Shown: in pieces, positions 6,269 through 55,572 of the stretch | Layout: each line of letters starts with the position of its first letter | How positions within the stretch are numbered: the stretch's first letter is position 1 | From: Longimicrobium sp. | Lineage (GTDB): Bacteria; Gemmatimonadota; Gemmatimonadetes; Longimicrobiales; Longimicrobiaceae | Length of the DNA stretch: 64,000 nt | Direction of reading: 5' to 3' | NCBI GenBank assembly: GCA_035691085.1 | Contig: DASSJS010000264.1 | Span: forward strand, 375 to 64,374 | Made by a program: the position numbers and the translations under genes | The notes under the pieces: model-generated | What the model saw: the letters and a program-made list of their open reading frames with translations, nothing else | The model's database searches: none | What the model was told of the DNA's origin: nothing

Positions 6269-6527
6269 TTTCTCTGGGTGGGGGAATGCACAACGACTCT
6301 CCGCATCCGTATTACCCCCCGGTTCGAGCAACTCGCCCCGCGCCGCTGGCGTCAGACGTGCGGGGGCGTGTACGTTCCCACTAGCGGAGGCGGAGCGGGG
6401 ATCTATCGGGCGCGCTGGGGGGTATGCCCGCGGACCTCACGGACGGCAGGGAACCACCGGCCGGACGGCGGAGCGAGCGCCCGTCCGAACGGATCATCTC
6501 GCGCCCCAGGGCGCCACGGGACAGCAG

Positions 6528-8192: not shown

Positions 8193-8420
8193 GCGCCGCG
8201 GCCTTCCGGCGAGCCAGCGCGCGCCGCTCCGGGGCGACCCGGGGCGGCGCGCGCGTGCGGGGGCGCCACGGATCGCATCGGGCCGGCGCCGCCGCGCGCG
8301 GGGTCCAGGCCGGCCGCTTGCCGGCGGGGCCCGTGATGTGAATGTTTTAGCACCTCTCCTCCGGGACCGGCGGCCCGCCGCTCCCCGTTCCACCCCCAGA
8401 CAGACGAGTCCGGACCGATC

Positions 8421-9497: not shown

Positions 9498-9642
9498 GCA
9501 TGCGAATGAGCCAATCGCGGAGGTCGGTCGAGTCCTCGAGGTCTTCGGGATAGGGCGGCATCATGGCGGGATCCGGTAGGATGACGGTGGGGGTTCGTGG
9601 CGCGAGGGGAGCGGAGGTGGGACCGGCGCGGGTTCGCGGGTG

Positions 9643-10269
9643 CTAGGGCCGCCCACCCCTGGTGACCGAATCCCCGGGTGTGAGCCATTCCTTCACGCCG
9701 CGGTGGTGGGAGCAGCTCCCGGAGTGGGTGGTGCCGTACCAGTAGGTGCCGTCCCTGCACAGCGCCGTCGGCCGCCGCGCCGGTTCGGAATCGCCCGTCC
9801 CGAGCAACCCCAGCGCGCGCCCGGCGGCGGGAGGCGCCTGGCCGAAGTTGTCGTTGGAGCGGTACGCGTAGCCGATCGGGTGGCCGTCCGCCTCGTACAC
9901 CCGCGACCACCCGGATCCGTCGCGCTCGCCCGCCAGCACGCGCTCGCCGGGCTTCAGCGTGCGCACGGGCGGTGTCCCGCGCCCCACACCGCGATACACG
10001 CGCACGTCGCGCTGGGCGTACACGGTCGACAGCGGCGCGGGTGGGCGGGTGACCGCGCGGATTGCGATCGCAGCCAGCGCCGCCGCGGCCGCCACTACGA
10101 GCGTCCACGCGACGGCCCTCCACCTCCTTCTCGTGGCCGGCGGCGGCAGGGGCTCCCAGGCACCGCCGAGCCCCTCGCCATCCGCGGATTTCCGTACCTT
10201 GTTCTCCAGGCGGGCGATGAAGTCGTGGAGGTCGGGCGGACCATCGAAGGTGTCGTGATCGTGTGGCAT
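9643..10269 (-). CDS. Membrane-anchored SH3-like + DUF3761-like protein
   Basis: 208-aa ORF with one TM segment (WTLVVAAAAALAAIAI) and an SH3-like middle part. The C-terminal CRDGTYWYGTTHSGSCSHHRGVKEWL matches the CxDGxxS...GxCSxHGGV pattern of DUF3761. Confidence 0.65.
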   Translation of the reverse strand: MPHDHDTFDGPPDLHDFIARLENKVRKSADGEGLGGAWEPLPPPATRRRWRAVAWTLVVAAAAALAAIAIRAVTRPPAPLSTVYAQRDVRVYRGVGRGTPPVRTLKPGERVLAGERDGSGWSRVYEADGHPIGYAYRSNDNFGQAPPAAGRALGLLGTGDSEPARRPTALCRDGTYWYGTTHSGSCSHHRGVKEWLTPGDSVTRGGRP

Positions 10270-27948: not shown

Positions 27949-30357
27949 TTACTCCATGCGCAGCGCGGTCATCGGCTCCACGCGGGCGGCACGGCGGGCG
28001 GGGATGTACGCGGCGGCCAGCGCCACGGCCGAGAGGAGCGCGGCGATGGCCAGGAAGGTGGCCGGGTTGCTGGCCGACACGCCGTACAGCGCGCCGCGCA
28101 GCACCTGCGCCAGCGCGAACGCCGCCGGGATGCCGATGGCCAGGCCGATGGCGATCAGCCGGGCGCCGCGGCGCACCATCAGCCGGATCACCCCGGCCGG
28201 CGGCGCGCCCAGGGCGATGCGCACCCCCACCTCGTGCGTGCGCTGCGCCACCGTGTAGCTCATCACCCCGTACAGCCCCACGCTGGCCAGCAGCAGCGCC
28301 ACCAGCGCGAACACCGCGAACATCGACCCGTACACGCGCGACTCGAACATCCGCAGCCGCACCACCTCGGCCATCCCCTGCACGCGGGTGAGCGGCAGGT
28401 CGGGGTCCAGCGCGCGCACCGCCTGGCGCACCGCGGGGGCCAGCGCCGCCGGCTCGCCCGCGGTGCGCACCACGATCGAAAGGGTGCGCCACGGCTGCTG
28501 CGCGTGCGCCAGGTACAGCTGCGGCAGGTCCGGGTCGTTCAGCTTGTGGTACTTGGTCTCGCGCGCCACGCCCACCACCGTGAACCAGGTGGTGTCGGCG
28601 GCGCCGAAGCGGAAGCGCTTCCCCAGCGCGCTCTGCCCCGGCCACGTGCGCTCGGCCATGACGCGGTTGACGATGGCCACCCGCGGCACGCCCTCGCGGT
28701 CGGCGCCGTTGAACTCGCGCCCCGCCAGCAGGGGGATGCCCAGCGTGGCGAAGTAGCCGGGCGTGGCCGCGCTGGTCAGCGCCTCGGGGGCGCTGCCGGC
28801 GGGATAGTCGCGCCCCTCGGCGAAGAAGGTGCTGCTGCTGCAGCAGTCCGCCACGGGGAGGCTGGAGATGGCGGCCGCGCCCTTCACCCCCGGCAGCGCG
28901 CGGATGCGCTCCAGCATCTGCCCGTACCCCAGGGTGACCGCGGAGCCGGCGGGGTAGCGCGGGCCCTGCAGCGAGGTCTGCAGCGTGAGCACGTTCCCGG
29001 CGCGGAAGCCGGGGCTCGCCGTGTGCAGCCGCATGAACGAGCGGATCATCAGCGTGGCGCCCACCAGGAGGACCAGGGAGAGCGCCAGCTGCACCACCAC
29101 CAGCCCGGCCTGCAGCCGCCCCGAGCGCACGCCGGTGGTGCCGCGCCCGCCGTCCTTCAGCTCGCTCACCAGGTCCAGCCGCGAGGCGCGCAGCGCGGGG
29201 ACCAGGCCGAACGCCAGCGCGCTGGCCGCGGCGATCCCCAGCGTCATGGCCAGCACGCGGCCGTCCACGTTGAACACCATCCAGAACGGGAGGTCGGCGG
29301 GGAGGCTGGCGGTGAGCGCGTCCATCCCCCAGGTGCCCAGCAGCGCGCCCAGGATGCCGCCCAAGAGCGCGATCAGCAGGCTCTCGGTGAGCAGCTGGCG
29401 GATCACCCGGCCGCGCCCGGCGCCCACGGCCAGCCGCACGGCGATCTCGCGCCGGCGGGTGGTGCCGCGCGCCAGCAGCAGGTTGGCCACGTTGGCGCAG
29501 GCGATCAGCAGCACGAAGCTCACGGCGCCGAGCATGATCAGCATCATCGGCCGCACCTGGCTCGAGAAGATCTCGCGGTACGGCTGCACGCCGCCGCCGC
29601 GCCGCGCGTCGTCCTGCGGGTAGCGTTCGGCCAGCTGGCTCGCCCGGGCGGCGGCGCGCGCGCCGGCCTGCCGCACGGTCACGCCCGGCGCCAGCCGGCC
29701 GATCACGTTGAAGTTGCGGTAGCCGCGCGCGTCGGCGCCGGTGGGCGGGTCGATGGGGAGCCAGAGGCGGGCCGTCTCGGGGAACTGGATGCGGGGCTGC
29801 ATCACCCCCACCACGGTGTACGGCTCGCCGTCGAGGCTCACCGTGCTCCCCAGCACCCGCCGGTCGCCGCCGAAGCGGCTCTGCCACAGGTCGTGCGAGA
29901 GGACCACCACCCTCCCCCCGCGGTCCTCCGCGGGAACGAAGCCGCGCCCCAGCGCCATCCTCACGCCCAGCACGGGGAAGAGCGACGCGGTCACCCGCGC
30001 GGCCTGCAGCCGCTGCGGCTCGTCGATCCCGCCCAGGTTCACCATGGCGTTGGTGTACGCCGCCGTGGCGGTCAGCGCGCCGTCCAGGTTCCCCCAGTCC
30101 TCGAAATCGGGATACGACAGGCTCTCGTGCCCGAAGCGCGTGTCGCCAGCCGCGTCGGGGGCAACGCTGTACAGCGCCATCAGCCGGTCGGGGTCGGCGA
30201 AGGGGAGGGGGCGCAGCAGCAGCGTGTTGACCGCGGTGAGCACCGTGGTGTTGGCGCCGATCCCCAGCGCCAGGCACACCACGGCGATCAGCGTGAACGC
30301 CGGGTCGCGCGCCAGGCGGCGGGCGCCGTAGCGAAGGTCCTGCAGCAGCAGGTCCAT
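27949..30357 (-). CDS. ADOP-family duplicated FtsX/MacB-type ABC permease (802 aa), paralog of 25075..27474
   Basis: Internal ATG (MDLLLQDLRYGARRLARDPAFTLIAVVCLALGIG) of ORF 27949..30492. The start overlaps the ATPase stop (TGATG). Confidence 0.85.
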   Translation of the reverse strand: MDLLLQDLRYGARRLARDPAFTLIAVVCLALGIGANTTVLTAVNTLLLRPLPFADPDRLMALYSVAPDAAGDTRFGHESLSYPDFEDWGNLDGALTATAAYTNAMVNLGGIDEPQRLQAARVTASLFPVLGVRMALGRGFVPAEDRGGRVVVLSHDLWQSRFGGDRRVLGSTVSLDGEPYTVVGVMQPRIQFPETARLWLPIDPPTGADARGYRNFNVIGRLAPGVTVRQAGARAAARASQLAERYPQDDARRGGGVQPYREIFSSQVRPMMLIMLGAVSFVLLIACANVANLLLARGTTRRREIAVRLAVGAGRGRVIRQLLTESLLIALLGGILGALLGTWGMDALTASLPADLPFWMVFNVDGRVLAMTLGIAAASALAFGLVPALRASRLDLVSELKDGGRGTTGVRSGRLQAGLVVVQLALSLVLLVGATLMIRSFMRLHTASPGFRAGNVLTLQTSLQGPRYPAGSAVTLGYGQMLERIRALPGVKGAAAISSLPVADCCSSSTFFAEGRDYPAGSAPEALTSAATPGYFATLGIPLLAGREFNGADREGVPRVAIVNRVMAERTWPGQSALGKRFRFGAADTTWFTVVGVARETKYHKLNDPDLPQLYLAHAQQPWRTLSIVVRTAGEPAALAPAVRQAVRALDPDLPLTRVQGMAEVVRLRMFESRVYGSMFAVFALVALLLASVGLYGVMSYTVAQRTHEVGVRIALGAPPAGVIRLMVRRGARLIAIGLAIGIPAAFALAQVLRGALYGVSASNPATFLAIAALLSAVALAAAYIPARRAARVEPMTALRME

Positions 30358-31094
30358 CACGCCACCTCGAAGCCGCTGCGCTCCAGCGCGGCCGCCAGCG
30401 GGCTGCGCTCGTCGCGCACCACGCGCCCGTCGAACAGGTGGATGGTGCGCGCGGCGTGCTCGGCGTAGCGCGGGTCGTGGGTGACCATGCAAATGGTGGC
30501 GCCCTCGCGGTGGAGCCCGGCCAGCAGGTCCATCACCGCCTCGCCGTTGGTGGAGTCGAGGTTCCCGGTGGGCTCGTCGGCCAGCAGGATCGACGGCTTG
30601 CCGGCGATGGCGCGGGCCACGGCCACGCGCTGCTGCTGGCCGCCGGAGAGCTGGCTGGGGTAGTGCCGCATGCGGTGGCTCATCCCTACCTTTTCCAGCG
30701 CCTCGGCCACGCGCTGCCGGCGCTCGGCCGCCGGCATCCCGCGGTAGGTGAGCGGCAGCTCCACGTTCTCGGCCACGGTGGCGTCGCCGATCAGGTTGAA
30801 GGCCTGGAACACGAAGCCGATCTCGCGGTTGCGGATGCGCGCGCGCTCGGCGGCGCTCAGGCGCGACACGTCGTTGCCGTTCAGGTGGTAGGTGCCGCTG
30901 GTGACCGAGTCGAGCAGCCCCAGCAGCGACAGGAGCGTGGTCTTGCCGCTGCCGCTGGGCCCGGCGATGGCCAGGTAGTCGCCGCGCGCCACCTCCAGGT
31001 GCACCTCCTCCAGCGCGTGGGTCTCCATCTCGTCGGTGTAGAACACCTTCTTCACGCCGTCCAGGCGGATCACGGGCGAGTTCTGGGTGGACAT
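30357..31094 (-). CDS. ABC transporter ATP-binding protein (MacB/LolD-type)
   Basis: Internal ATG (MSTQNSPVIRLDGVKKVF) of ORF 30357..32402. Walker A GPSGSGKTT, signature LSGGQQQRVAVARA, Walker B ILLADEPTGNLD. Confidence 0.9.
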   Translation of the reverse strand: MSTQNSPVIRLDGVKKVFYTDEMETHALEEVHLEVARGDYLAIAGPSGSGKTTLLSLLGLLDSVTSGTYHLNGNDVSRLSAAERARIRNREIGFVFQAFNLIGDATVAENVELPLTYRGMPAAERRQRVAEALEKVGMSHRMRHYPSQLSGGQQQRVAVARAIAGKPSILLADEPTGNLDSTNGEAVMDLLAGLHREGATICMVTHDPRYAEHAARTIHLFDGRVVRDERSPLAAALERSGFEVA

Positions 31095-31195
31095 CTGCGG
31101 GTCTCCCTGGGGATGAAGGGCTCGCGCCCGGGTGGGTTTCACGTTGCTGGTTGATGAACCGCGGTCCGTCTCGAGGCTTCGATTCGCAACCTCGT

Positions 31196-31268
31196 CTGCC
31201 GTTCCCCCCTCCCCCCGCGCAGCGGGGGGAGGGGCCGGGGGAGGGGGGCTCGCCGCGGCATGCGCCTG
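31196..31268 (+). repeat. REP-B GC-rich palindromic repeat
   Basis: ccgttcccccctccccccgcgcagcggggggaggggccgggggaggggggctcgccgcggcatgcgcc, between the adaptor and ATPase genes. Confidence 0.8.
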
Positions 31269-31294
31269 GGTCGGCTCCCCGCGCCGTATCGAAC

Positions 31295-32539
31295 CTACTT
31301 CAGCCGCACGCGCGGGTACTGCTCGTACTGCGACATGTCGGAGAGGATCAGGATGTCGCCGGGGCGGGCGCCGCCGCGGATCTCGATGCTGTTGGCGCTG
31401 CCGCGGCCCAGCGTGACGCGCACGCGCTCGGCCTCGCGGCCGCCCGGAAGGACGCGGAACATGGCCAGCGTTCCCTCGGCCTGGCCGTACGCCGGCCGGC
31501 CCACGTAGGTCACGTCGCGCAGCCGCTCGATCTCGATCGTCCCGTCCACGCTCAGGTCGGGCCGGGCGCCCCGCGGGAGCGCCCCCTCCAGCGCCACGTC
31601 CACCGTCACCGTGCCGTTCTGCGCCGCCGGGTCGATGCGCACCACGCGGCCGGCCACGACGCCGTTGCGCGTGTCCACCTGCGCGGGCTGGCCCAGGGTG
31701 ATGTCGCGCGCCTGCGTCTCGGCGATGCGCAGCACGGCCTTCAGGCGCCCGGGCTGAACCACCTTGGCGAGCGTGGCGCCGCTCTGCACCCACTGGCCGA
31801 GCTCGACGGGAAGCTCCTGCAGCACGCCGTCCTGCGGCGAGCGCACCTGCATCGACGCGATCTGCTGCTGGCTGAACGCGGCCAGGCGGCGGAGCATCTC
31901 CACCTGGCTCTGCTGCGCGGACAGCTGCTGCTGCAGCGAGCCGCGCTGCTGCCGGAGCCGCTCCTGCTCCACGGAAAGGCGCGTCTGCAGGTCGCTCGCG
32001 TTGTCGCGGGCGCGCTCCAGCTCCTGCCGCGAGATCAGCTCGCGCTGCGCCAGGCCGTCGGCGGAGCGCGCCTGGCGGGCGGCCTCGTTGTACTGCGCCT
32101 GCACCTGCGACGCGTTGGACTGCTGCGCCAGGATCTGCCCCTGCAGGGTGGCGCGCAGCGTGGTCAGGTCGGCCTCGGCCGAGCGGAGCTGGCGCTCGGC
32201 CTCCAGCGCGTTGCGTTCGACGTCGGGGTTGCTGAGGACGAGCAGGACCGTGCCGGCCTTCACCTCGGTGCCGGGCTCCACCAGCTTCCGCTCCACGCGC
32301 CCCTGCGTGACCGCGCTGATCCAGCGGATGTCCTGCGACACCAGCGTTCCCGGCCCGCGCACCTGCCGCAGCATCTCGCCGCGCCGCACGGTGTCGGTCC
32401 ACACGGCGCCCGACTCCACGGCCGGCGCCGCGGGGCCCACGCGGGCCAGGGCGACGGTGGCCACGCCCAGCACCCCCACGCCGGCGGCCACGTAGATCCA
32501 GCGCCGCGGCTTGCGCCGGTCAGTGCGCGGGATGTCCAT
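31295..32539 (-). CDS. Efflux periplasmic adaptor subunit (HlyD/MacA family)
   Basis: 414-aa ORF with an N-terminal TM anchor, a biotinyl-lipoyl-like hairpin (VKAGTVLLVLSNPD), a long coiled coil and a beta-barrel C-terminus. Confidence 0.85.
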   Translation of the reverse strand: MDIPRTDRRKPRRWIYVAAGVGVLGVATVALARVGPAAPAVESGAVWTDTVRRGEMLRQVRGPGTLVSQDIRWISAVTQGRVERKLVEPGTEVKAGTVLLVLSNPDVERNALEAERQLRSAEADLTTLRATLQGQILAQQSNASQVQAQYNEAARQARSADGLAQRELISRQELERARDNASDLQTRLSVEQERLRQQRGSLQQQLSAQQSQVEMLRRLAAFSQQQIASMQVRSPQDGVLQELPVELGQWVQSGATLAKVVQPGRLKAVLRIAETQARDITLGQPAQVDTRNGVVAGRVVRIDPAAQNGTVTVDVALEGALPRGARPDLSVDGTIEIERLRDVTYVGRPAYGQAEGTLAMFRVLPGGREAERVRVTLGRGSANSIEIRGGARPGDILILSDMSQYEQYPRVRLK

Positions 32540-37072: not shown

Positions 37073-37729
37073 ATGTCGACCACCGAGAACGCCGCGCCCG
37101 AGGGCATCCAGATCGCCGCCGCCGACGTCGCCCTCCAGAACCTGGGGGTTCGCGCTCCGCTTACCGGGGCCATGCAGCGCGTGCAGGACGCCACGGGCGT
37201 GTCGAGCACCCTCTCGCTCTCCACCAGCAAGGTGCAGCTGGGCACCGCCACCGAGCCGGCGGCGTTCCAGGTCCAGGTGCCCTGGAACGATCCCAGCGGC
37301 CCCAGCTTCATCATCGGCGACACCGGCCGCTCCAACCTGCGGATGGGCGTCGAGCGGGAGTTCTCGTGGGTCCAGAGCCACGGGGGCAAGCCGCTGCAGG
37401 TGAACCCCATCGGCAACAACGTGGTGATCTCCCGCGACCGGACGGCCCGGGTGGGGATTGGAACCGAGAAGCCGCAGGCCCTGCTGGACGTGAACGGCGA
37501 TCTCCGCGCCACCTCGCTCACCGTGGGCGGCTCGGCGGCGGTGTCGGGCGCGCTGAGCGTGGCGGGCGCGCTGAGCGTGGGGACGCTCGCCGTGGCCGGC
37601 GCGCTGACCGTGCACGGGCCCGGCTTCAAGATCAGCGGCATCCCCTCGGCCGACTCGGCGCCGGACCACGGGGCGAAGCTGAAGCACGTGTACGTGGACC
37701 CCGACACGGGCTCGCTGTACATGCGCTGA
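37073..37729 (+). CDS. Hypothetical protein with repetitive beta-helix-like C-terminus
   Basis: Internal ATG (MSTTENAAPEG...) of ORF 36818..37729. Repeats GDLRATSLTVGGSAAVSGALSVAGALSVGTLAVAGALTVHG. No family recognised. Confidence 0.5.
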   Translation: MSTTENAAPEGIQIAAADVALQNLGVRAPLTGAMQRVQDATGVSSTLSLSTSKVQLGTATEPAAFQVQVPWNDPSGPSFIIGDTGRSNLRMGVEREFSWVQSHGGKPLQVNPIGNNVVISRDRTARVGIGTEKPQALLDVNGDLRATSLTVGGSAAVSGALSVAGALSVGTLAVAGALTVHGPGFKISGIPSADSAPDHGAKLKHVYVDPDTGSLYMR

Positions 37730-37901: not shown

Positions 37902-38198
37902 TCAGCACACGGGGGTGATCTGGCGCGTGCCGCACACCTGGTAGGAGGTGTCCGGGCAGTCCACCGCCGTGCGTTCGCACGTCTCGTCCACGGTGAGCTC
38001 GCAGATTCCGTTCACCGATTCGTCGCACGAGTAGATGGTGGCGGGGCCGGTGCCGCAGACCGCGTACGCCGTCTCGCAGTAGCAGCTATCGTCCATCGTG
38101 CAGCCGCGGGCGCGCACCGTCCCGGTCTGCTGCATGGCCGGGGGCGTGGCGAACGACTCCACGGAAAGGCTATCCGGCTCCAGCCTGAGCTTTTTCAT
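37902..38198 (-). CDS. RiPP-precursor-like / Cys-rich secreted peptide P2 (98 aa, 10 Cys)
   Basis: Internal ATG of ORF 37902..38276 with GGAG upstream. The leader MKKLRLEPDSLSVESFATPPAMQQTGTVRA is shared with P1 and P3. The C-terminal 67 aa contain 10 Cys. Confidence 0.6.
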   Translation of the reverse strand: MKKLRLEPDSLSVESFATPPAMQQTGTVRARGCTMDDSCYCETAYAVCGTGPATIYSCDESVNGICELTVDETCERTAVDCPDTSYQVCGTRQITPVC

Positions 38199-38381
38199 CG
38201 GTGTGGCTCCGCGTGTGTGGGGGGAACTCGGCTCGTGTCGCAACCCATCCAGTGTAACGCGGAAACCAACTCTCATCCAGCAGATTGTGTCAGGATCGGG
38301 GAAGCGGCGCGGGGTGCCTCACCCACGCCGGTGCCGGGATTGCCCGCACACGTGAATGCCCCGGCGCTGCCCGGGAGACGG

Positions 38382-39462: not shown

Positions 39463-39648
39463 ATACTGCTGGCCTTACATGTTGCCCGTGTACCGTCTGG
39501 CCATGGTCGTCTCCCTTCTGATGCGGTGAAGTGCGGCAGATCAGAAGTGAGACGGACGCAGGTTCAAGACTTTCCCGGACCGTGGAACGAGCTGGCGATC
39601 CGAGGTGGCAAAAGCCCCGGCGCCTGCGCGCCGGGGCATCCTCCTGCG

Positions 39649-39795
39649 TCACGCGGCCAGGCGCCGCACCACCTCCCGCGCGCCGCGCCGGTACACCGTG
39701 AGGCACACCAGCTCGCCCGCGGGGTCGCGCACCTCCCACCAGCGCGTGTCCTTCTTCTTCTGGTAGGTGTAGCCGGCGGGTTCCGTGGCAACCGA
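39649..39795 (-). pseudogene. Start-less second copy (X') of the 57-aa gene X, in frame directly behind the TGA of gene Y
   Basis: It translates to SVATEPAGYTYQKKKDTRWWEVRDPAGELVCLTVYRRGAREVVRRLAA, compared with X = ...ATEPAGYTIQKKKDTRWWDMRDHAGELVCLTVYRRGAREVVRRLAA. There is no in-frame start codon. The distance from the Y stop is a multiple of 3. Confidence 0.55.
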
Positions 39796-40163: not shown

Positions 40164-40196
40164 GAATGCCCCGGCGCCTGCGCTGCCGGGGCATTC
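40164..40196 (-). terminator. Hairpin after gene X (gaatgccccggcg-cctgcgct-gccggggcattc)
   Basis: 11-13-bp stem 8 nt after the X stop on the minus strand. Confidence 0.55.
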
Positions 40197-40203
40197 TCGT
40201 GCG

Positions 40204-40377
40204 TCACGCCGCCAAGCGCCGCACCACCTCTCTCGCGCCACGCCGGTACACCGTGAGGCACACCAGCTCGCCCGCGTGGTCGCGCATGTCCCACCACCGC
40301 GTGTCCTTCTTCTTCTGGATGGTGTAGCCGGCGGGTTCCGTGGCGGCGGGAGCGGCGCCCTGCTGTGCATCGGCCAT
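40204..40377 (-). CDS. Small protein X (57 aa; below the ORF-track cut-off)
   Basis: Found by reading the sequence. GGAGGTG lies 5 nt before the ATG. MADAQQGAAPAATEPAGYTIQKKKDTRWWDMRDHAGELVCLTVYRRGAREVVRRLAA, TGA at 40204..40206, 174 nt in total. Confidence 0.55.
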   Translation of the reverse strand: MADAQQGAAPAATEPAGYTIQKKKDTRWWDMRDHAGELVCLTVYRRGAREVVRRLAA

Positions 40378-40500
40378 CGTGCACCTCCTGGCTGGCTTGA
40401 CCCTCGGCGCCCGGCAGGGCTACCTTTGGCGAGCGGGCGGCCTTCGGGTCGGTTCGCGAATGGGCTGGCCGAGGCTTCTTCGCGGGAGATTCGGCCAGCC

Positions 40501-40570
40501 TTGCTTTTTGCCCTGCTGGATAGAATAATATATCCAATCCGCTGTTCTGTCAAGAGCATTCTATCCAATT
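40501..40570 (+). promoter_or_regulatory. AT-rich promoter/operator region upstream of the HTH gene
   Basis: TTGCTT-N17-AATAAT hexamers. The inverted repeat GGATA-N8-TATCC (40518..40535) overlaps the -10. TATCCAAT occurs twice (40531 and 40562). Confidence 0.45.
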
Positions 40571-40576
40571 CGCGCG

Positions 40577-40801
40577 ATGGATTTCAAGGAAGCCACCGAC
40601 ATCCTGACCCGCCGCATCACCGCCGACGAGATCGCTGAGGCCGCCGGCGTGTCGATCAGCTCGATCGCGCGGGCGCGGTTGGACCCAGCCAGTTCCGCCT
40701 ACCGCTCACCGCCTGAGGACTGGCGATCCGTGCTGGGGCGATTGGCGCGAGAACGTCTTCAAGAGCTGGCAGCATTTGCTGAAGAGATGGAGGCTGCGTA
40801 A
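40577..40801 (+). CDS. Small HTH DNA-binding protein (74 aa), candidate controller of the downstream operon
   Basis: 74-aa ORF. ITADEIAEAAGVSISSIARARL is a helix-turn-helix pattern. It lies 50 nt upstream of and co-directional with the four-gene operon. Confidence 0.65.
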   Translation: MDFKEATDILTRRITADEIAEAAGVSISSIARARLDPASSAYRSPPEDWRSVLGRLARERLQELAAFAEEMEAA

Positions 40802-40851
40802 TTTGAAGGTCCCGCAAACGTTTTCACACTGACAATCGCCCAAGGTCACGA

Positions 40852-41763
40852 ATGCTGTATGATCGCGATATTGTGAGAGTGCGTGAGAAGCTGGAGTTCT
40901 TTAAGAAGGCAGCAATCTGGCCATTGGAATTTAGTTTTGACCCGGAAGGTTGGCTTACAAATTTCCGGGATGACGAACTGGACGTTGCTGTCGCTCTTCT
41001 CGATGGATTTTCATACTTCGCACCGGAGCTTACCAAAAAGATTCTCAGCACTGCTTTCCATCGACTGAGCCACTACGTGGCAGACCCTTCGAGTGCGCCT
41101 GCTGAACGGATAAATCTTTGGGACGGGTTTCGGGAAAGCGTGATTATCACGTATCCGACGGACGAACGACCAGGAGCTACAGACAGCGGGCGCACCTACC
41201 TCCGCAAGGCGAGAACAATTCTTGGGCTAGAGCAAGAGCAGTATATGGATCCAGTTGATGCGCTTTCCGCGCGTATTTTAGATCCGTCTAGACCACTAAT
41301 CTTTCTTGATGATTTCGCCGGAAGTGGGAATCAATTTTGTGAGACTTGGCATAGACCCTACATGATCGCTGGACGGCGTTGGTCTTTCAACTCGGCAGGT
41401 GGTGCAGGACTTTTGGCGTATATTCCGATACTCAGTTCCCACATGGCAGTTCGGAGCATTGATCGATGTGCATCGAACGTCCTGTTTCTACCAGGGCATG
41501 TCGTAGGGGAGGAATATTCCGCCTTCCACCCTGAGTCAGTGCTTTGGCCATCGCCGGAAGTGCAACAGAAAGCCCGAGATGTTATCTACGAGGCGAGCGC
41601 GCGCGCCGGGATTCCACTCGGCGATGGATCCGTGCCGGACGATTGGTGCGGATACCGAGAGTTAGGACTAGCGTTGGCGATTGACGACACCATTCCCGAT
41701 GCCTGCCTAACGATTCTGTACTGGAACGCGAATGGCTGGCAACCGTTGTTCAGGAGGCCGTAA
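40852..41763 (+). CDS. Operon gene A: PRTase-like protein (303 aa)
   Basis: Low-GC ORF. PLIFLDDFAGSGNQF resembles the PRPP-binding loop of type I phosphoribosyltransferases (hhhhDDhxxTGxT). The TAA stop abuts the gene B ATG. Confidence 0.75.
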   Translation: MLYDRDIVRVREKLEFFKKAAIWPLEFSFDPEGWLTNFRDDELDVAVALLDGFSYFAPELTKKILSTAFHRLSHYVADPSSAPAERINLWDGFRESVIITYPTDERPGATDSGRTYLRKARTILGLEQEQYMDPVDALSARILDPSRPLIFLDDFAGSGNQFCETWHRPYMIAGRRWSFNSAGGAGLLAYIPILSSHMAVRSIDRCASNVLFLPGHVVGEEYSAFHPESVLWPSPEVQQKARDVIYEASARAGIPLGDGSVPDDWCGYRELGLALAIDDTIPDACLTILYWNANGWQPLFRRP

Positions 41764-43644
41764 ATGCAAGAGGATGTATTCACCGCTTTACGGGCGGTAT
41801 TCGGTCGGTATAAGGCCGAGTGGCTACGTGGGGATGTTTTTCGTCTGTTCCAGAAACCCGGGTACTTTCCGGAATTGGAAGAGCCGAGGCCGACTGCACT
41901 CATCGGAGGACGGGGGACAGGTAAAACCAGTGTATTAAAGAGCCTTTCCTATAGAGGGCATTTCGAGTTAAGTGGCAAGTCTGCCGCAGCCGCTGTTAAC
42001 GCCCCGTACGTCGGACTGTATTGGTGCATCGATTCTAACCGGGTTACAGCTTTTGCTGGGCCTGAGCTCGAGCCCAAGCAGTGGATAAGGCTGTTTGCAC
42101 ACTATGTTAACTTGGAAATCGTAGCGATGTTTTGTGAGTATGTCCTTTGGTTTGAAAACACGACTGGAACAACTGTCACGGTGCCACAATCCAGACTAGC
42201 GAAAGTTGGGACTGCTCTCCACATCACGGGTGCGGCGACGATAAACGAGCTCGCGTCTAAGGTGAGTGAAGCGCTGGTTACTTTGGAAGCTAGCATCAAC
42301 TCCGTTGCGGATCGCGCAAATGCCCCGCTGAGCATGCAAAGCGTGCCGATCGAGTACTTAGCGGAGGCCCTGATTTCAACTGATGCCTTCAGTGGAAAGG
42401 TTTTTTACATAGTTGTTGACGAATTTGAGAACTTGGACGAAACGCAACAATCTCTGTTCAACACGCTCATCAAGCATGGCCGTGACAAGTTTGCGTTCAA
42501 GATTGGAATGAAAGACTCGGGATGGCGGACCAAAGCCACCCTTAATGGTGAAATCTTGACGCATCCGGCAGACTACGACCTGATCGATCTATCGGAACGT
42601 TTTGGTAATGGTCAGTACCCGAGTTTTGCTCGTGAAGTATGTGAGGCTCGGTTGGCTCACGCCTTTGTAAGGGCGGGTCTTGTAAACATGCCTCCGGAGA
42701 TTCCCTCCTATTTTCAAGACCTTGCGGTGGATGAAGAGGCTCGACTGCTGGGGTTAGGTCGGCGGATCGCCCCAATTCGCGCGAGTGTTATGAAGGACCC
42801 TAACGCCTCCGAGCTGTTGAACGATCTCTCGGATCTCGACCTGTACTACCTCCACCGGCGGGCAGAGAGTGAGAGTGTATCTTTGACCGAGATCTTGGCT
42901 GAATACAGTTTGAATCCCAAAGGCTATCTATCTAGCTACAGAGAAAACTACCGACAGTCCTTGCTATTTACGATAAGCGAGCACTCCGGGAAAGGCCTGC
43001 AAAAGTACTATTCAGGATGGAATACCCTCACAAAGGTATCCGGCGGGAACATTCGTTATTTAGTGGAAATCGTGGAGCGGGCATTTGAACTCCACCGCAC
43101 TACAAGTAACGACATTCGCAAGGCTGTATCAGCTCGCGATCAAACAGAGGCTTGTATTGCTGTGGGACGCAAGTACGTGCAAGAAGTACAGGCTTTAGAC
43201 CCACAGGGACACAGGCTCACATTCCTGCTACTTGGCCTCGGTCGTCTGCTGAATCTTCTAGCGCGCCATTCTCTTGGGAAGCAGCCAGATACAACGTCAT
43301 TTGTACTTGCGCGTCCCACTTCTCAGGAGATAGCCCAAGAACTTGATGATCTGTTGCGTATCGCGGTGATGCATCAGGTACTGCGGAAGTGGCCAGCGAC
43401 TAAATTGACGAGTCACACCGAAGCGAAGGAATCCGAGTATTCTGTGCATCCAATCTTTGCTGCGTTCTTTGTATTCCCTTATCAGAAGAAACGTCGGATC
43501 AGGATTTCGGGTGAGGATCTACTACTGCTCTCTGTGGACCTGAAGGCTGGGTTGGCGGCGGTACTGAATGCTGTCGGACAGCCCGATGATCCTACTGAGG
43601 CTCTTCCACGGCAACTGAGTCTTTTCGAGGCAGCATATGAGTGA
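41764..43644 (+). CDS. Operon gene B: P-loop NTPase, ORC/Cdc6-like AAA+/STAND-like (626 aa)
   Basis: Walker A LIGGRGTGKTSV, Walker B VFYIVVDEFENL, and a long helical C-terminal region. Translationally coupled on both sides. Confidence 0.8.
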   Translation: MQEDVFTALRAVFGRYKAEWLRGDVFRLFQKPGYFPELEEPRPTALIGGRGTGKTSVLKSLSYRGHFELSGKSAAAAVNAPYVGLYWCIDSNRVTAFAGPELEPKQWIRLFAHYVNLEIVAMFCEYVLWFENTTGTTVTVPQSRLAKVGTALHITGAATINELASKVSEALVTLEASINSVADRANAPLSMQSVPIEYLAEALISTDAFSGKVFYIVVDEFENLDETQQSLFNTLIKHGRDKFAFKIGMKDSGWRTKATLNGEILTHPADYDLIDLSERFGNGQYPSFAREVCEARLAHAFVRAGLVNMPPEIPSYFQDLAVDEEARLLGLGRRIAPIRASVMKDPNASELLNDLSDLDLYYLHRRAESESVSLTEILAEYSLNPKGYLSSYRENYRQSLLFTISEHSGKGLQKYYSGWNTLTKVSGGNIRYLVEIVERAFELHRTTSNDIRKAVSARDQTEACIAVGRKYVQEVQALDPQGHRLTFLLLGLGRLLNLLARHSLGKQPDTTSFVLARPTSQEIAQELDDLLRIAVMHQVLRKWPATKLTSHTEAKESEYSVHPIFAAFFVFPYQKKRRIRISGEDLLLLSVDLKAGLAAVLNAVGQPDDPTEALPRQLSLFEAAYE

Positions 43645-44620
43645 ACGGATTCTCTTGCCGGTTTGCACTGGCCGCTTCACCTCGCGGGCCTCCTTCAACG
43701 TGCGTCCTGGCGCGGTATACATCTACGGAGAGTCGCTTGAGAATCGCAGCCACCTTCCGCAGAGTTGGATGGAAACGCAGGATTGCCACTTTTTTCGAGT
43801 GGAAGAACAGGAATATGAGCGTTTTGCGTTCACAGTTGCTGGGCGGGAATATCGCCTGCGCAGTCGCATCGATGTAGAGGCTTTCATAGATCACATTCTG
43901 GCAGTTTCCCCAGTCGTCTATGTAGACATCACAGGACTTAGTCACCATGTCTGGGCGCCCTTGATTTCGGAAATAGTGCTAAGGGTGGCCCGATTCCCAA
44001 ATGCGGGCATTCAATTAGCCGCAGTGTATGTAGAACCCGTGCATTATACCAAGTCGAAAGTCCCGCGTCCGGGCGACATCTTCGCACTGAGTGATAAATT
44101 GCATGGTATACGCCCGTTACCCGGGCTTGTCCGTCTTCGGCGACATGAGAGTGACAAGGCGATGATTGTAGCGCTTCTCGGATTCGAAGGGTGGCGCTTC
44201 GATGCAGTGCTTGCGAAGCTTGAACCGGACGCTGGGACTGTTGTACCGGTGATCGGTGTTCCTGGATTTCGCGCGGAGTACCCGTTCTACACCCTCGAAG
44301 GCAACATAATTCCGCTTGAGCGAGATGGTAACTGGACTCGGCGGAAGTTCGCGACGGCGAATGATCCTTTCGAAGTTTACCACATTCTCGAAATGCTGCA
44401 GACTCGACACCCTGAGACCCTTCTCAGGGTTGCATTGGTCGGGACGAAGCCCCATGCTCTCGGTGCCGTTATCTTCCATGCGGTGCACCCGGGGATGAGT
44501 GAACTCATCTACGATAACCCAGTACGGAGTGCCGGACGGACCGACTCTGACCGAACGCTCTTGGAGTACGACGTCTCCTCGTTCCTTGGGATGATGAACG
44601 ACCCAAGCTTCGCCGCATAA
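43637..44620 (+). CDS. Operon gene C: unknown protein with alternating beta/alpha (Rossmann-like) pattern (327 aa)
   Basis: The start overlaps the gene B stop by 8 nt. Strand-like segments VVYVDITGLSHH, AMIVALLGFEG, VVPVIGVPGF and LRVALVGTKPHALG. No catalytic motif recognised. Confidence 0.7.
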   Translation: MSERILLPVCTGRFTSRASFNVRPGAVYIYGESLENRSHLPQSWMETQDCHFFRVEEQEYERFAFTVAGREYRLRSRIDVEAFIDHILAVSPVVYVDITGLSHHVWAPLISEIVLRVARFPNAGIQLAAVYVEPVHYTKSKVPRPGDIFALSDKLHGIRPLPGLVRLRRHESDKAMIVALLGFEGWRFDAVLAKLEPDAGTVVPVIGVPGFRAEYPFYTLEGNIIPLERDGNWTRRKFATANDPFEVYHILEMLQTRHPETLLRVALVGTKPHALGAVIFHAVHPGMSELIYDNPVRSAGRTDSDRTLLEYDVSSFLGMMNDPSFAA

Positions 44621-44630
44621 CGAGTTCTAG

Positions 44631-45773
44631 ATGGCCACTCTTCCGAGTAGAGTGATGATCGACGCCCACTACACGCCGCCCTCGATCGCACGAGAACTTA
44701 TCAGCCACGTTGGTCGGCTGCTTCCGGGCTCTATTGCCGACTTCGCGGCTGGGGGCGGCGAGTTGCTCCTACAAGCTGCGAATAGGTGGCCGAGACGCGA
44801 ATTCGCTGCTTGCGATATCTCGCGCCAAGCTGTGGCCAGACTTTCCAGGGAACGACCCGAGTGGAAAATCGGCACGTGTGATTTCTATTCTTCGCGTTCG
44901 CGGGCAGCTTCGCGGGTTCTTCGTTCTGTGCGGGGCGATGTGGCGCTGTGTCTCGCAAACCCTCCGTTTTCCTATCGTGGTGGTGAGCAGTGGCGAGTTG
45001 TTCCGGCAACAGGGACGTCTCTTTTCTGTGGTCCAGCGATGGCATTCCTCCTGAATGCCGTTGAATATCTCCGACCGGGTGGACAATTGGTGGCCATCGT
45101 CCCTGCCAATGCCCTTAGGAGTGCGAAGGACGAGGCGGCAGTCAATTTTCTGAACGAGTCGGGGACGCTAAAACTACTCGACAGTTATCCCAGAGGAGCG
45201 TTTCCAAACTGCACTTCTCAAACTGTAAGTATTAGTTACCACCGCGACAGGGTATCGCGCGAAGTTGAGGTTGTTGGGAAAGAGGTTCGCGCCGTAAGGG
45301 TGGAGGTTGAACTTACTCGGGGAAGCACCCCGATGCACTCCGTTCTGCCTCTCGGCGCTGGGCACATACCTGTCGTGCACACGTCAGATCTCCGGAACAA
45401 CACTGTGCAGCGCCCTAATCATGGGGTCACACGGGCTAATAACGTTGTTCGTGGTCCCGCAGTGTTAGTTCCTCGAGTCGGGAAGCCACAAAGCGACAAA
45501 GTTGCAATTTACACAGCCGACGATCCGGTCGTACTGTCCGACTGCGTATTTGCGATTAGGTGTGCATCTGCAGGCGACGCTCTATACGTTCTAAACATCC
45601 TCTTGGCGAATTGGGTAATCCTTTGTCGAGTATATCACGGAACGTGCGCACCATATATCACGATTAAGGACTTGGTGGGAGCATTACATGGCATGGGAAT
45701 ACACGTGTGTGCCCGTTCGTCAGAGGTGCATAGCAACAACCTGCAACAAATCGCAGCGACGGTGGTCATCTAG
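44631..45773 (+). CDS. Operon gene D: gamma-class N6-adenine DNA methyltransferase (380 aa)
   Basis: Motif I IADFAAGGGELL (AdoMet binding) precedes motif IV LANPPFSY (NPPF/Y). The C-terminal about 180 aa are plausibly the target-recognition domain. Confidence 0.85.
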   Translation: MATLPSRVMIDAHYTPPSIARELISHVGRLLPGSIADFAAGGGELLLQAANRWPRREFAACDISRQAVARLSRERPEWKIGTCDFYSSRSRAASRVLRSVRGDVALCLANPPFSYRGGEQWRVVPATGTSLFCGPAMAFLLNAVEYLRPGGQLVAIVPANALRSAKDEAAVNFLNESGTLKLLDSYPRGAFPNCTSQTVSISYHRDRVSREVEVVGKEVRAVRVEVELTRGSTPMHSVLPLGAGHIPVVHTSDLRNNTVQRPNHGVTRANNVVRGPAVLVPRVGKPQSDKVAIYTADDPVVLSDCVFAIRCASAGDALYVLNILLANWVILCRVYHGTCAPYITIKDLVGALHGMGIHVCARSSEVHSNNLQQIAATVVI

Positions 45774-45852
45774 GCATGTCGGGAATCCTGACGCGGTTCA
45801 ACGCGGTGTCGCGCAGCCCCATTCCGACGGAGAAACCCGCGCCAACTGTTCG

Positions 45853-46356: not shown

Positions 46357-46533
46357 ATGGAAAAGCTGAGGCTGAACGTGGAGGAACTGACGGTGCAGTC
46401 GTTCGCCACGGACGATGCGGACGCGCAGATGGGCACCGTGCAGGGGCAGGAGGTGGCGGCGCCGAGCGCCTTCTACACGCGTTGCTGTCAGACGAACGAA
46501 GTCCAGTCGTGCCCGGCCCGCTGCACCCCGTGA
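46357..46533 (+). CDS. RiPP-precursor-like peptide P3 (58 aa, 4 Cys)
   Basis: Internal ATG of ORF 45688..46533 with GAGGA upstream. MEKLRLNVEELTVQSFATDDADAQMGTVQG is followed by QEVAAPSAFYTRCCQTNEVQSCPARCTP. Confidence 0.6.
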   Translation: MEKLRLNVEELTVQSFATDDADAQMGTVQGQEVAAPSAFYTRCCQTNEVQSCPARCTP

Positions 46534-51337: not shown

Positions 51338-52729
51338 TCAGCAGTGCGAGCTCATGGCGAAGCCTTCCTGCGCGTCCACCAGCGGGGCGCGGTAGTCGCC
51401 GGTGAAGCAGGCGGTGCAGTAGGTCTCGCCGTTGTCGCGCACGCAGTCCAGCATCCCCTCGGGCGACAGGTAGCCGAGCGAATCCACGCCCAGGTACTCG
51501 CGGATCTCGTCCACGCTCTTTCCCGAGGCGATCAGCTCGCCCTTGCTGGGCATGTCGATGCCGTAGAAGCAGGGCCAGCGCACCGGGGGGCTCGCCAGGC
51601 GCAGGTGCACCTCGGCCGCGCCCGCGTCGCGCAGGATTGCCACCAGCGCGCGCGACGTGGTCCCGCGCACCAGCGAATCGTCCACCACCACCACGCGCTT
51701 CCCCTCCAGCACCTCGCGAACGGGGCTGAACTTGAGGCGCACCTTGAAGTCACGCCCGGCCTGCGTGGGGGTGATGAAGGTGCGGCCCACGTAGTGGTTG
51801 CGGATCAGCCCCAGCTCGAACGGCACGCCGCTCTGCTCGGCGTAGCCCACCGCCGCCGAGTTGGCGCTGTCGGGCACGCTGATCACGATGTCGGCGCTTG
51901 CGGGGCGCTCCTGCGCCAGGCGCCGGCCGAATGCGCGGCGGGCGCGGTCCACCGTGTATCCCCACAGCCGCGTGTCGGGGCGGGCGAAGTACACCAGCTC
52001 GAACACACACGGCTGCGGCTCGGCCACGAAGCGCGGGAGCCGCACCACGCTCTCGATCTCGCCGCCGCGGATGCGGATCAGCTCGCCCGGCTCCACGTCG
52101 CGCACGTAGCGCGCGTGCACGATGTCGAGCGCGCACGTCTCGCTGGCCACCACCAGCCCGCCGGTGGGGAGCGCACCGATCACCAGCGGGCGGTAGCCGT
52201 ACGGGTCGCGCGCGGCATACAGCGTGTCATCCACCGTGGCCAGGATGCAGTACGCGCCCTCCAGCTGGCTCAGCGCGTCCACGATCTGCGCCTCCGGCGT
52301 GTTGTCGCGCGAGCGGGCGATCAGGTGCACGATCACCTCGCTGTCGATGGTGCTCTGGAAGAACGCACCCTCTTCGAGCAGGCGGTCGCGGATGGCGTGG
52401 AAGTTGGTGAGGTTGCCGTTGTGGACCACCGCGAGGTGGCCGAAGCGGTACGTTTCGCGGATCGGCTGGGCGTTCTTGAGCCCCGCGCCCCCGGCGGTGG
52501 AGTAGCGGATGTGCCCCACCGCCGTCTCGCCGGGTAGCTCGGCCAGCTTCTGGTCGGTGAACACGTCGGAGACCAGCCCCGCCTCGCGGACACGGTGCGT
52601 CTCGCCCGTCGCACCCTCGTAGGTGACGATGCCGGCGGCCTCCTGGCCGCGGTGCTGGAGCGAGTAGAGGCCCAGGTAGGTGAGCCGGGCGGCTTCGGGA
52701 TTGCCGGAAACCGCTACGATTCCACACAC
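51338..52729 (-). CDS. purF: Amidophosphoribosyltransferase
   Basis: 463 aa. N-terminal nucleophile MCGIVAV, PRPP loop VVVVDDSLVRGTTS, C-terminal Fe-S Cys cluster (CTACFTGDY). Confidence 0.93.
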   Translation of the reverse strand: MCGIVAVSGNPEAARLTYLGLYSLQHRGQEAAGIVTYEGATGETHRVREAGLVSDVFTDQKLAELPGETAVGHIRYSTAGGAGLKNAQPIRETYRFGHLAVVHNGNLTNFHAIRDRLLEEGAFFQSTIDSEVIVHLIARSRDNTPEAQIVDALSQLEGAYCILATVDDTLYAARDPYGYRPLVIGALPTGGLVVASETCALDIVHARYVRDVEPGELIRIRGGEIESVVRLPRFVAEPQPCVFELVYFARPDTRLWGYTVDRARRAFGRRLAQERPASADIVISVPDSANSAAVGYAEQSGVPFELGLIRNHYVGRTFITPTQAGRDFKVRLKFSPVREVLEGKRVVVVDDSLVRGTTSRALVAILRDAGAAEVHLRLASPPVRWPCFYGIDMPSKGELIASGKSVDEIREYLGVDSLGYLSPEGMLDCVRDNGETYCTACFTGDYRAPLVDAQEGFAMSSHC

Positions 52730-53259: not shown

Positions 53260-55572
53260 TCACGCGTGCTGCACTTCGCTCTCCAGCGAGGTCTCCACGT
53301 CCGCGGCGCTGCCTTCCATGCGGCGGGGGATGGCGCGCTCGTAGATCTGCTGCAGGCCGAAGGCGGGGGCGTGGATCGCGCCGCCCTTCGTCTCGATCCG
53401 TATCGCGCTGTTGCGCCCGCCCACCGTGCCGATCCGCTTCGCCGGCACGCCGTGGATCTCCAGGCAGCGCGTCAGCTCATCCACCTTCGCCGCGTCGCAC
53501 GAGAGCACCACGCGCCCCTGCGCCTCGCCGAAGAGGAGCGCGTTGGCCGGGAGATCGTCGTCCAGCCGCACCTCGATGCCGAAGGGCTCGCTTCCGCCCG
53601 CGAAGGCGCTCTCCACCAGCGCCACCGCCAGCCCGCCCTCGGCCGGGTCATGCGCGCTGCGGACCAGCCCGGCGTGGATGGCGGCCAGGATGCCGCGCTG
53701 CAGGCGGCTCTCGGCGGCCAGGTCCAGCGCGGGGGCATCTCCGGCCACGCGGTCGTGGATCACCTTCAGGTACTCGCTCCCGCCCAGCTCGCCCGTGTTG
53801 CGGCCCGCCAGCACAATCGCGTCGCCTTCGCCCTGAAAGCCGGCCACGGTCACGTGCGCCAGGTCTTCCACGATCCCCACCATCCCGATCGTGGGCGTGG
53901 GATAGATGGCGCCGCGCGGGTTCTCGTTGTACAGGCTCACGTTCCCGCCCGTCACCGGCGTCTCGAACGCCTCGCACGCCTCGCCGATGCCGCGCAGCGC
54001 CTCGGCCATCTGGAAGTAGACCTCGGGCTTCAGCGGGTTGCCGAAGTTGAGGTTGTCGGTCACCGCGCGGGGGAGGGCGCCGGAGCAGACGAGGTTTCGA
54101 GCGGCTTCCGCAACGGCGATCAGGCCGCCGCGGTACGGGTTGAGGTGCACGTAGCGGCCGTTGCAGTCCACCGTCATCGCCACGCCCTTGTTCGTCCCCC
54201 TCAGACGTAGGACGGCGGCATCGCTGCCGGGGCCTACGACGGTGTTCGTCCGCACGGTGCTGTCGTACTGCTCGTAGACCCAGCGCTTGGACGCGATGGA
54301 GGGCGAATCCAGCAGCCGCTCCAGCGTCCACGTGGGATCACGCTCCTCGAACACGGGCGCGATCGCGGAGACGTCCGTCGCGCGCAGCGCCGCGATCTCG
54401 GGCGATTCCACGCCTTCGCGGGTGTACGTGGGGCAGCCTTCCACCAGCGGCTCGCCGGGGATGTCCACCACCACCGTGCCGTTCTCGCGGACCACGTAGC
54501 GCCCCGTCTCCGTCACACGGCCGATCGTCTCCGCGTCCAGGTCCCACTTGCCCAGGATGGCGCGCACGTCCTCGTCGTGGCCGTTCTTCGCGACCACCAG
54601 CATGCGCTCCTGCGTCTCGGAAAGGAGGATCTCGTACGGCGTCATCCCCGTCTCGCGCACGGGGACCTTGGTGATCTCGATGTCCACCCCCGTGCCGCCG
54701 CGCGCCGCCATCTCGGTACTCGAGGAGACCAGCCCCGCCGCGCCCATGTCCTGGATGCCAACGATGTGGCCGCTCTTGATCAGCTCGAGCGACGCCTCCA
54801 GCAGCAGCTTCTCGGTAAACGGGTCGCCCACCTGCACCTGCGGCCGCTTCGCCTCGCTCTCCTCGGACAGCTCGGCGGACGCGAAGGTGGCGCCGTGGAT
54901 GCCGTCGCGGCCGGTCTTGGCGCCCACGGCCATGATCGGGTTGCCGACGCCGGCCGCCACGCCGCGGATCAGGTCCTCGTGCTTCATCAGGCCCACGCAC
55001 ATGGCGTTGACCAGCGGGTTCCCCTCGTACGCGCCGTCGAAATAGACCTCGCCGGCCACGGTGGGGATCCCCACGCAGTTGCCGTAGTCGCCGATCCCCT
55101 TCACGCACCCGGCGAACAGGTAGCGCACCCGGTCGCCCTGCTCGCCGTCGATCTCGCCGAAGCGCAGGGAGTTGAGCATGGCGATGGGCCGCGCGCCCAT
55201 GGTGAACACGTCGCGCAGGATGCCACCCACGCCCGTCGCCGCGCCCTGGTACGGCTCCACGGCACTCGGATGGTTGTGCGACTCGATCTTGAAGGCCACC
55301 GCCAGCCCGTCGCCCACGTCGATCACGCCGGCGTTCTCGCCGGGGCCCTGGAGCACCCAGGGGGCTTTCGTGGGGAGCTTCTTGAGGAGCGGGCGGCTGT
55401 TCTTGTAGCCGCAGTGCTCGCTCCACATGGCGCTGAACACGCCCAGCTCGGTGAACGTGGGCTCGCGCCCCAGGATGCCCAGGACGAGGTGGTACTCTTC
55501 AACGGAAAGCCCGTGCTCCGCGACCAGCTCGGGGGTGATCGCGGGATCGCCGGGGCGTGCGCTTGCGGTCAC
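53260..55572 (-). CDS. purL: Phosphoribosylformylglycinamidine synthase subunit PurL
   Basis: 770 aa. Typical small-type PurL (FGAM synthase II), with N-terminus ...[41 protein letters not shown]. Confidence 0.93.

Follow-up and report, generated by a model that had tools for sequence, protein, structure and literature searches.

A conserved four-gene module of a phosphoribosyltransferase-like protein, an ORC/Cdc6-like ATPase, a CARF6-family protein and an N6-adenine methyltransferase is a candidate methylation-linked conflict system

Bacteriophage exclusion (BREX) systems combine BrxC, an AAA+ ATPase of the ORC/Cdc6 clade (1200–1300 aa), with the N6-adenine methylase PglX and with PglZ, BrxL, BrxA and BrxB; they are horizontally mobile and contain no classical restriction nuclease. 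Type III-A retrons consist of a reverse transcriptase, an msr/msd RNA, in some cases a winged-helix partner, and a phosphoribosyltransferase (PRTase)-like effector, the catalytic function of which is undetermined (Mestre et al. 2020, PMC7736814). In ShosTA, the PRTase-fold protein ShosT, which binds phosphoribosyl pyrophosphate (PRPP), is paired with ShosA, a DprA-like partner with a Rossmann-like nucleotide- or nucleic-acid-binding fold, and ShosT, the toxicity of which depends on its binding of PRPP, disturbs purine metabolism (PMC11961720, PMC12961424). CARF-superfamily or SAVED sensors are found in type III CRISPR and CBASS systems, with Cas10 or a CD-NTase, and N6-adenine methylases in restriction–modification (R-M) and MADS systems. 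Here, we analyze a locus of four same-strand genes, A–D, at 40852–45773 of a 64,000-nucleotide stretch (the window) of a Longimicrobium sp. metagenome-assembled genome contig (DASSJS010000264.1, positions 375–64,374; assembly GCA_035691085.1). The genes encode a PRTase-fold protein (A), an ORC/Cdc6-like ATPase (B), a protein of the CARF6 family (C) and an N6-adenine DNA methyltransferase (D). The data support A–D as one conserved functional unit that recurs in unrelated genomes, and we infer that it is a conflict system that is linked to methylation, depends on an NTPase and has a CARF/PRTase output.

The locus had first been described in a reading of the DNA made without database searches (the sequence-only reading), and its account of the architecture was confirmed. 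The four open reading frames (ORFs) are packed as a single co-directional unit: the stop codon of A (TAA) directly abuts the ATG of B, with a Shine–Dalgarno-like sequence (cAGGAGG) just 5′ of the junction, B and C overlap by 8 nt (ATGAGTGA), and 10 nt separate C from D. The module is AT-richer than its surroundings, as reported, with a G+C content (GC) of 0.53 compared with 0.71 in the left and 0.68 in the right flank, and the GC profile steps near 40.5 kb and 45.78 kb. The motifs quoted for A, B and D are present in the translations and fall at invariant or near-invariant columns of the family alignments. Hundreds of homologues exist for each of the four proteins, so A–D are real genes and not chance ORFs. 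NCBI annotates A at 294 aa and C at 283 aa, in both cases with a start 3′ of the ATGs backed by homologues, which lie at 40852 for A (giving 303 aa) and at 43637 for C (giving 327 aa); an exact-sequence lookup of the NCBI-called C protein gave no record, and the RefSeq label for A, B and C is "hypothetical protein".

Related loci were collected by scanning GTDB species genomes with the C alignment, and A, B, D and a small helix-turn-helix (HTH)-like ORF that precedes the module in the window were then sought by tblastn. The 80 loci obtained come from Acidobacteriota, Pseudomonadota, Actinomycetota, Planctomycetota, Verrucomicrobiota, Spirochaetota, Chloroflexota, Bacteroidota, Nitrospirota, Elusimicrobiota, Myxococcota and other phyla. 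Of these, 74 have A, 76 have B, all 80 have C and 77 have D, which answers the question of co-occurrence in unrelated genomes posed by the sequence-only reading and identifies the methylase as a core member. The order is ABCD, as in the window, in 61 of the 68 fully typed loci and DABC in the other seven, and at least 97% of the junctions have gaps no longer than 30 nt. When the ORFs of the 80 loci were clustered, no further universally conserved neighbor emerged, and no fifth conserved gene besides the dUTPases described below. Sphingomonad loci carry a different, N6_Mtase/Eco57I-type methylase instead of D (L012, 6470–7018; L040, 6020–7045; L068, 11045–11989), and two loci (L025 and L061) contain A–B–C, tblastn having detected no methylase in the flank sequence covered. 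In-frame stops were seen in otherwise full-length homologues of A (L022 and L058) and of D (L020, L021 and L062), and may reflect decay or assembly errors.

The module looks horizontally mobile. A divergent clade (22–26% identity) comprises the same four families in the order D-A-B-C; at least 129 Klebsiella plasmid records carry it, and most of them are typed as conjugative. In the record examined, the Klebsiella pneumoniae IncFII plasmid pJX6-2 (L083), the module occupies positions 2789–7891, about 1.3 kb downstream of repA. Proteins of this clade match PRTase-CE (2.9e-50), ORC-CDC6-like (3e-116), CARF6 (5e-47) and PADLOC PRTase_III-A (1.8e-23), and the plasmid methylase aligns end to end with the D family (hhalign probability 99.7). 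The ATPase gene of pJX6-2 is intact, yet absent from the gene table of the plasmid. Module GC is below that of the flanks in 56 of 69 related loci (median difference −8.5 points). The 141 nearest neighbors include six phage-type integrases, three resolvases, at least five transposases and two retron-type reverse transcriptases; the eight longest neighbors include a single Upx protein and a single type IIG R-M enzyme. A NACHT protein and an IS5 element adjoin the module on a Moraxella plasmid, and a DarT-like/macro pair does so on a Burkholderia plasmid. Most copies are chromosomal, with no recognizable mobile-element backbone within 10 kb.

Protein A matches the Pfam family PRTase-CE (PF24390) over the whole profile (E-value 2.9e-39; 135.9 bits against a cutoff of 27) and has near-full-length homology to the effectors of type III-A retrons (PADLOC PRTase_III-A, 3e-13), this PADLOC family being a retron effector family and not an accessory of type III-A CRISPR systems. 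The PRPP-loop-like motif of the sequence-only reading, LIFLDDFAGSGNQ, lies in a predicted PRTase fold: D153 and D154 are invariant within an F.DDF.GSG.Q pattern in the family alignment, and F151, F155, G157, G159 and Q161 are near-invariant. An AlphaFold2 model of A (predicted local distance difference test score, pLDDT, 91.9) was compared with the PDB using Foldseek, which returned uracil PRTases first, followed by orotate and purine PRTases (probability 1.0, template modeling (TM) scores 0.3–0.48), with HGPRT also among the probability-1.0 matches. A combines a type I PRTase fold, as modeled, with a hydrophobic-strand/DD/(S/T)G PRPP loop, and is a putative PRTase. The A profile had no match among PDB sequences, and A had no NCBIfam model and no PHROGs match.

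Protein B matches the Pfam family ORC-CDC6-like (PF24389) over its whole profile (2.6e-114, 383.5 bits), and its Walker A motif GGRGTGKT (G48..K54-T55) and Walker B residues DE (D219, E220) are invariant in the family alignment, bearing out the proposal that it is an ORC/Cdc6-like P-loop ATPase. A GNIRYL motif is also conserved (N429, R431), which we take to resemble the sensor-2 GDAR motif of ORC/Cdc6 proteins. The B profile gave P-loop-level matches only against PDB sequences; no effector domain was recognizable with Pfam, NCBIfam matches were sub-threshold only and PHROGs gave none. One apparent phage match for B was rejected. The record concerned (CAKLQF020000018.1, "Acinetobacter phage MD-2021a", L082) is filed as phage, but its genes include efp, cstA, tdcB and further housekeeping genes, and it is probably a bacterial contig; its module copy adjoins a tRNA-Val gene.

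The statement of the sequence-only reading that C has no nameable motif did not hold. C matches the PADLOC CARF6 model (PDLC01913) over nearly its full length (3.8e-90, model positions 5–303 of 305), and its AlphaFold2 model (pLDDT 93.3, predicted TM score 0.93) contains an N-terminal alpha/beta domain followed by a Rossmann-like domain. Over the whole chain, Foldseek gives only poor matches (TM about 0.2–0.28); local matches include the CARF domain of Thermus thermophilus Csm6 (probability 0.97–1.0). By fold and profile similarity, C is a predicted CARF-superfamily protein with a putative nucleotide ligand. An alignment of 115 sequences has 27 invariant columns, many of them charged. In a library of 1.84 billion proteins the family forms 1081 clusters at 50% identity, and the best 150 clusters listed are stand-alone proteins of ∼310–330 aa or shorter fragments, with one 439-aa exception and no obvious domain fusions. 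The C profile matched no PDB sequence, and for C there was no NCBIfam model and no PHROGs match.

The D family profile matches BseCI (4.8e-15), HsdM, TaqI and CamA over residues 3–202. DFAAGGGELL (D37) precedes NPPF (residues 110–113), and D37, D62 and NPPF are invariant, as expected of the gamma-class N6-adenine methyltransferase that the sequence-only reading had recognized. The best PADLOC matches of D are mad2 (2e-13, at domain level) and MTase_II (2e-10), and its NCBIfam matches are sub-threshold only. Its C-terminal domain carries RG..H, PRVG, DCV and G.GA.Y.T motifs, has no PDB or Pfam match, and shows a median pairwise identity of 30%, compared with 33% for the N-terminal domain.

In 27 of the 80 loci the module has a dUTPase gene no more than 300 bp away, directly upstream or downstream and on either strand. 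Nineteen of these encode trimeric dUTPases (PF00692) with all catalytic motifs, and eight encode the all-alpha "dUTPase_2" type (PF08761); a dUTPase gene also adjoins the module on the Moraxella plasmid p4 (L081), where the five genes span 4383–9906, and on the Acinetobacter contig L082. The occurrence of two unrelated dUTPase folds at the same position argues for a functional link to the reaction that converts deoxyuridine triphosphate (dUTP) to the monophosphate (dUMP) and pyrophosphate. Taken with the uracil-PRTase-like fold of A, the linkage points, weakly, to pyrimidine deoxynucleotide chemistry. In one locus, the nearest neighbor is ThyX.

Compared with the systems outlined above, the module most resembles one or another of them in single parts. 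Like BREX, it has an ORC/Cdc6-clade AAA+ ATPase together with an N6-adenine methylase, appears mobile and has no classical restriction nuclease, but it contains no PglZ, BrxL, BrxA or BrxB, and its CARF and PRTase components are absent from BREX. B (626 aa) is far from the size of BrxC and has no PADLOC BrxC match, so that the resemblance is one of ORC/Cdc6 clade, and D, a small methylase of the gamma class whose C-terminal domain is conserved, has no PglX match (PADLOC, E ≤ 1). No PglZ match was obtained at the same threshold for the five window proteins, nor is there such a conserved neighbor in the 80 loci, and a 2026 paper on BREX diversity treats DUF499/BrxC systems, not the A–D module. 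To type III-A retrons the module is linked by the homology of A to their PRTase-like effector; it has no reverse transcriptase, no msr/msd RNA (the Rfam scan was empty) and no winged-helix partner, and regulation would instead come from B, C and D. The combination of a PRTase-fold protein with a Rossmann-like partner recalls ShosTA. However, C is CARF-like and not DprA-like, ShosTA includes neither an ATPase nor a methylase, and ShosT is not among the 50 PDB matches listed for A, the best of which are the uracil, orotate and purine PRTases.

C links the module to type III CRISPR and CBASS through the CARF superfamily and its local likeness to Csm6, but the neighborhood has neither a conserved Cas10 or CD-NTase nor a CRISPR array, and C is a stand-alone protein with an extra N-terminal domain and not fused to an effector; a cyclase encoded elsewhere in the genome might act in trans. 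The methylase is shared with MADS and R-M systems, as is a small upstream HTH-like ORF, which is confined to the window copy and not conserved. The NCBIfam MADS2 model scores 10.2 bits against a cutoff of 720, and a PADLOC mad8 match covers P-loop residues 37–68 only. Types I–III R-M differ in that A, B and C match no restriction endonuclease model in Pfam or PADLOC and no nuclease is a conserved neighbor. The module thus lies outside BREX, MADS, R-M, retrons and cyclic oligoadenylate signaling, in line with the earlier judgment that it matches no nameable system. PADLOC 2.0 and NCBIfam 20.0 contain no system-level model for A–D, and a full-text literature search found no paper describing the gene set, an earlier prediction in comparative-genomics work outside that search being possible. 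The earlier term "undescribed" is too strong at family level, since the curated Pfam families PF24390 and PF24389, which are consecutive accessions, already catalogue A and B, and the PADLOC CARF6 model C. The module is real, widespread and uncharacterized, but has probably been seen already by comparative genomicists.

The remaining features of the window are set out with the module genes in Table 1. The sequence-only reading had placed an HTH controller gene with a palindromic operator upstream of A, in the arrangement of an R-M controller. A 74-aa ORF does lie 50 nt upstream of A, but its best Pfam HTH matches are weak (E 0.07–0.17), its GC of 0.64 is host-like and its homologue was found by tblastn in none of the 80 related loci, so it is not part of the conserved system. 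The only clear inverted repeat is upstream of this ORF and not between it and A, in a region (40500–40576) with a GC of 0.44. Promoter-like sites in the AT-rich stretch lie on the minus strand only, and the promoter and terminator scans were at shuffled expectation. Around the island the Rfam scan was empty, and the tandem-repeat scan gave nothing relevant and no CRISPR array.

Table 1. Positions of the module genes and other features. Coordinates refer to the window, except in the last row, where they refer to related loci (L numbers).
Feature	Position	Strand	Description
Gene A	40852..41763	+	303 aa; PRTase-fold protein (Pfam PRTase-CE); proposed effector
Gene B	41764..43644	+	626 aa; ORC/Cdc6-like AAA+ ATPase; proposed sensor or switch
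Gene C	43637..44620	+	327 aa; CARF6-family Rossmann-like protein; proposed nucleotide-binding regulator
Gene D	44631..45773	+	380 aa; gamma-class N6-adenine DNA methyltransferase with a conserved C-terminal domain resembling a target recognition domain
GC-poor island with the module	40500..45780	.	From the composition profile and GC comparison
74-aa ORF, weakly HTH-like	40577..40801	+	Sub-threshold Pfam HTH matches; GC 0.64; probably not part of the system
AT-rich stretch with 9-bp inverted repeat	40519..40567	.	GGATAGAAT (40520-28) / ATTCTATCC (40559-67); read from the sequence
dUTPase examples	L003 10299-10751; L023 6493-7197; L081 4383-5048; L082 5377-6015		

The window copy sits amid ordinary genes, with a MacB/FtsX-type ABC transporter upstream (27952–32402, minus strand) and purF-like (51341–52729) and purL-like (53263–55572) genes downstream, both on the minus strand. 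The window contains no tRNAs and no convincing flanking direct repeats, and no integrase or other defense gene was seen near the island. Two paralogous small Cys-rich ORFs flank it, at 37902–38276 (minus strand), several kb to the left, and at 46357–46533 (plus strand), ∼0.6 kb to the right; they share the N-terminal pattern M(K/E)KLRL..E.L.V.SFAT, look like precursor-peptide genes, have no Pfam match and contain between them an inverted repeat (38145–38198/46357–46410). There is a 160-nt direct repeat (39630–39789 and 40185–40344, 92% identity), one copy of which overlaps a minus-strand ORF of 57 aa (...YTIQKKKDTRWWDMRDHAGELVCLTVYRRGAREVVRRL) that lies just left of the island and has no Pfam match, and an 18-nt tandem repeat (4.2 copies, 77% matches) is located at 37541–37612 inside a high-GC ORF.

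What the module does can be proposed from its parts. The account we prefer, though we put it at somewhat less than an even chance, is that of a self-contained mobile conflict module, most likely directed against phages or plasmids, in which a methylation arm is coupled to a nucleotide-metabolic effector arm formed by a CARF-regulated PRTase. D would mark resident DNA; B would act as an ATP-driven sensor or scaffold that reacts to an invader protein or to invader DNA lacking the mark; C would bind a nucleotide ligand and gate A; and A, as a PRPP-dependent effector, would disturb the nucleotide pool and cause growth arrest or abortive infection, as with ShosT. The target chemistry is probably in the dUTP/dUMP/uracil branch, because one or other dUTPase fold is attached in about a third of the loci, and one possibility is that the precursor pool of thymidine monophosphate (dTMP) would be drained, with the dUTPase supplying dUMP and pyrophosphate. 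The kinship of A with type III-A retron effectors, together with the ShosT precedent, plasmid carriage, the GC-poor islands and occasional defense neighbors, supports a putative defense role.

Several observations weigh against this account. The module encodes neither a nuclease nor a membrane effector, a cyclase to supply a CARF ligand is not conserved near the 80 loci, and the enrichment of defense genes among the sampled neighbors is only modest. The two loci with A–B–C and no detected methylase suggest that methylation may not be strictly required. Methylases engaged in an arms race are expected to have variable specificity domains, and D is atypical in this respect; its putative specificity domain is nearly as conserved as the catalytic domain, which could mean a fixed, non-discriminating target or a role in protein interaction. 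The window copy has no dUTPase, and the low TM scores of the Foldseek matches to A and C weaken any inference about substrates.

Other arrangements of the same parts have to be considered. In a more specific and, in our estimation, unlikely version of the conflict module, it would be a new class of methylation-gated immune system with a metabolic output, also spread on common Klebsiella IncFII plasmids: a CRISPR-independent CARF protein would control the PRTase, which with the dUTPase would divert or destroy the dUMP/uracil branch of deoxynucleotide synthesis and induce a "thymineless" abortive infection. Alternatively, A might be a signal generator, making a nucleotide-like messenger from PRPP and a base, which C would sense while B blocked the replication of unmethylated DNA in a BREX-like manner. 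With its CARF fold C needs a ligand, for which a cyclase is not conserved nearby, and such a scheme would fit both the intact PRPP loop of A and the parallel with BREX of an ORC/Cdc6-type ATPase and a methylase without a nuclease. It is nevertheless improbable, as the relatives of A are type III-A retron effectors and not signal makers, the 27 invariant and often charged columns of C look more like those of an enzyme or a tight complex partner, and B has no recognizable effector domain. The dUTPase association could also indicate a modification pathway, with PRTase, dUTPase and methylase building or installing a modified pyrimidine or adenine and B loading the machinery onto DNA. The two unrelated dUTPase folds, the ThyX neighbor in one locus, the constant target suggested by the conserved C-terminal domain of D and the lack of a nuclease are consistent with this. 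However, no thymidylate-synthase-like, glycosylase or transglycosylase partner is conserved, only about a third of the loci have a dUTPase and A is related to toxic retron effectors, which together make such a pathway quite improbable.

The module might instead serve its own maintenance or competition between elements, through plasmid or island addiction or the exclusion of rival plasmids, with D providing an antidote-like mark and A the poison. We regard this as doubtful in view of the mostly chromosomal copies with no mobile-element backbone within 10 kb and of the window copy, which lies between housekeeping genes with no integrase found. Pointing the other way are the at least 129 Klebsiella plasmid records, mostly conjugative, with repA ∼1.3 kb away in the record examined, the presence of the module on other plasmids, its GC-poor island behavior and mobile-element neighbors, and the in-frame stops in A or D in five loci, which suggest a costly cargo. 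Addiction or competition and defense are not mutually exclusive roles. Finally, chance juxtaposition of an orphan methylase with unrelated genes deserves almost no credence and is refuted by the fixed order and overlapping junctions in the 68 fully typed loci from many phyla, as well as by the divergent clade.

If the module is functional, as the preferred conflict-module account supposes, it would represent a widespread defense or competition system, spread over many phyla and plasmids and assembled from an unusual combination of parts: methylation-based self-marking without a nuclease, a CARF sensor without CRISPR or a known cyclase, and a PRTase effector. The linkage to dUTPases of two unrelated folds provides a concrete, testable biochemical lead. 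The module would also offer a handle on two questions, namely how PRTase-like effectors act, including those of type III retrons, and which ligand is bound by CARF proteins outside CRISPR systems.

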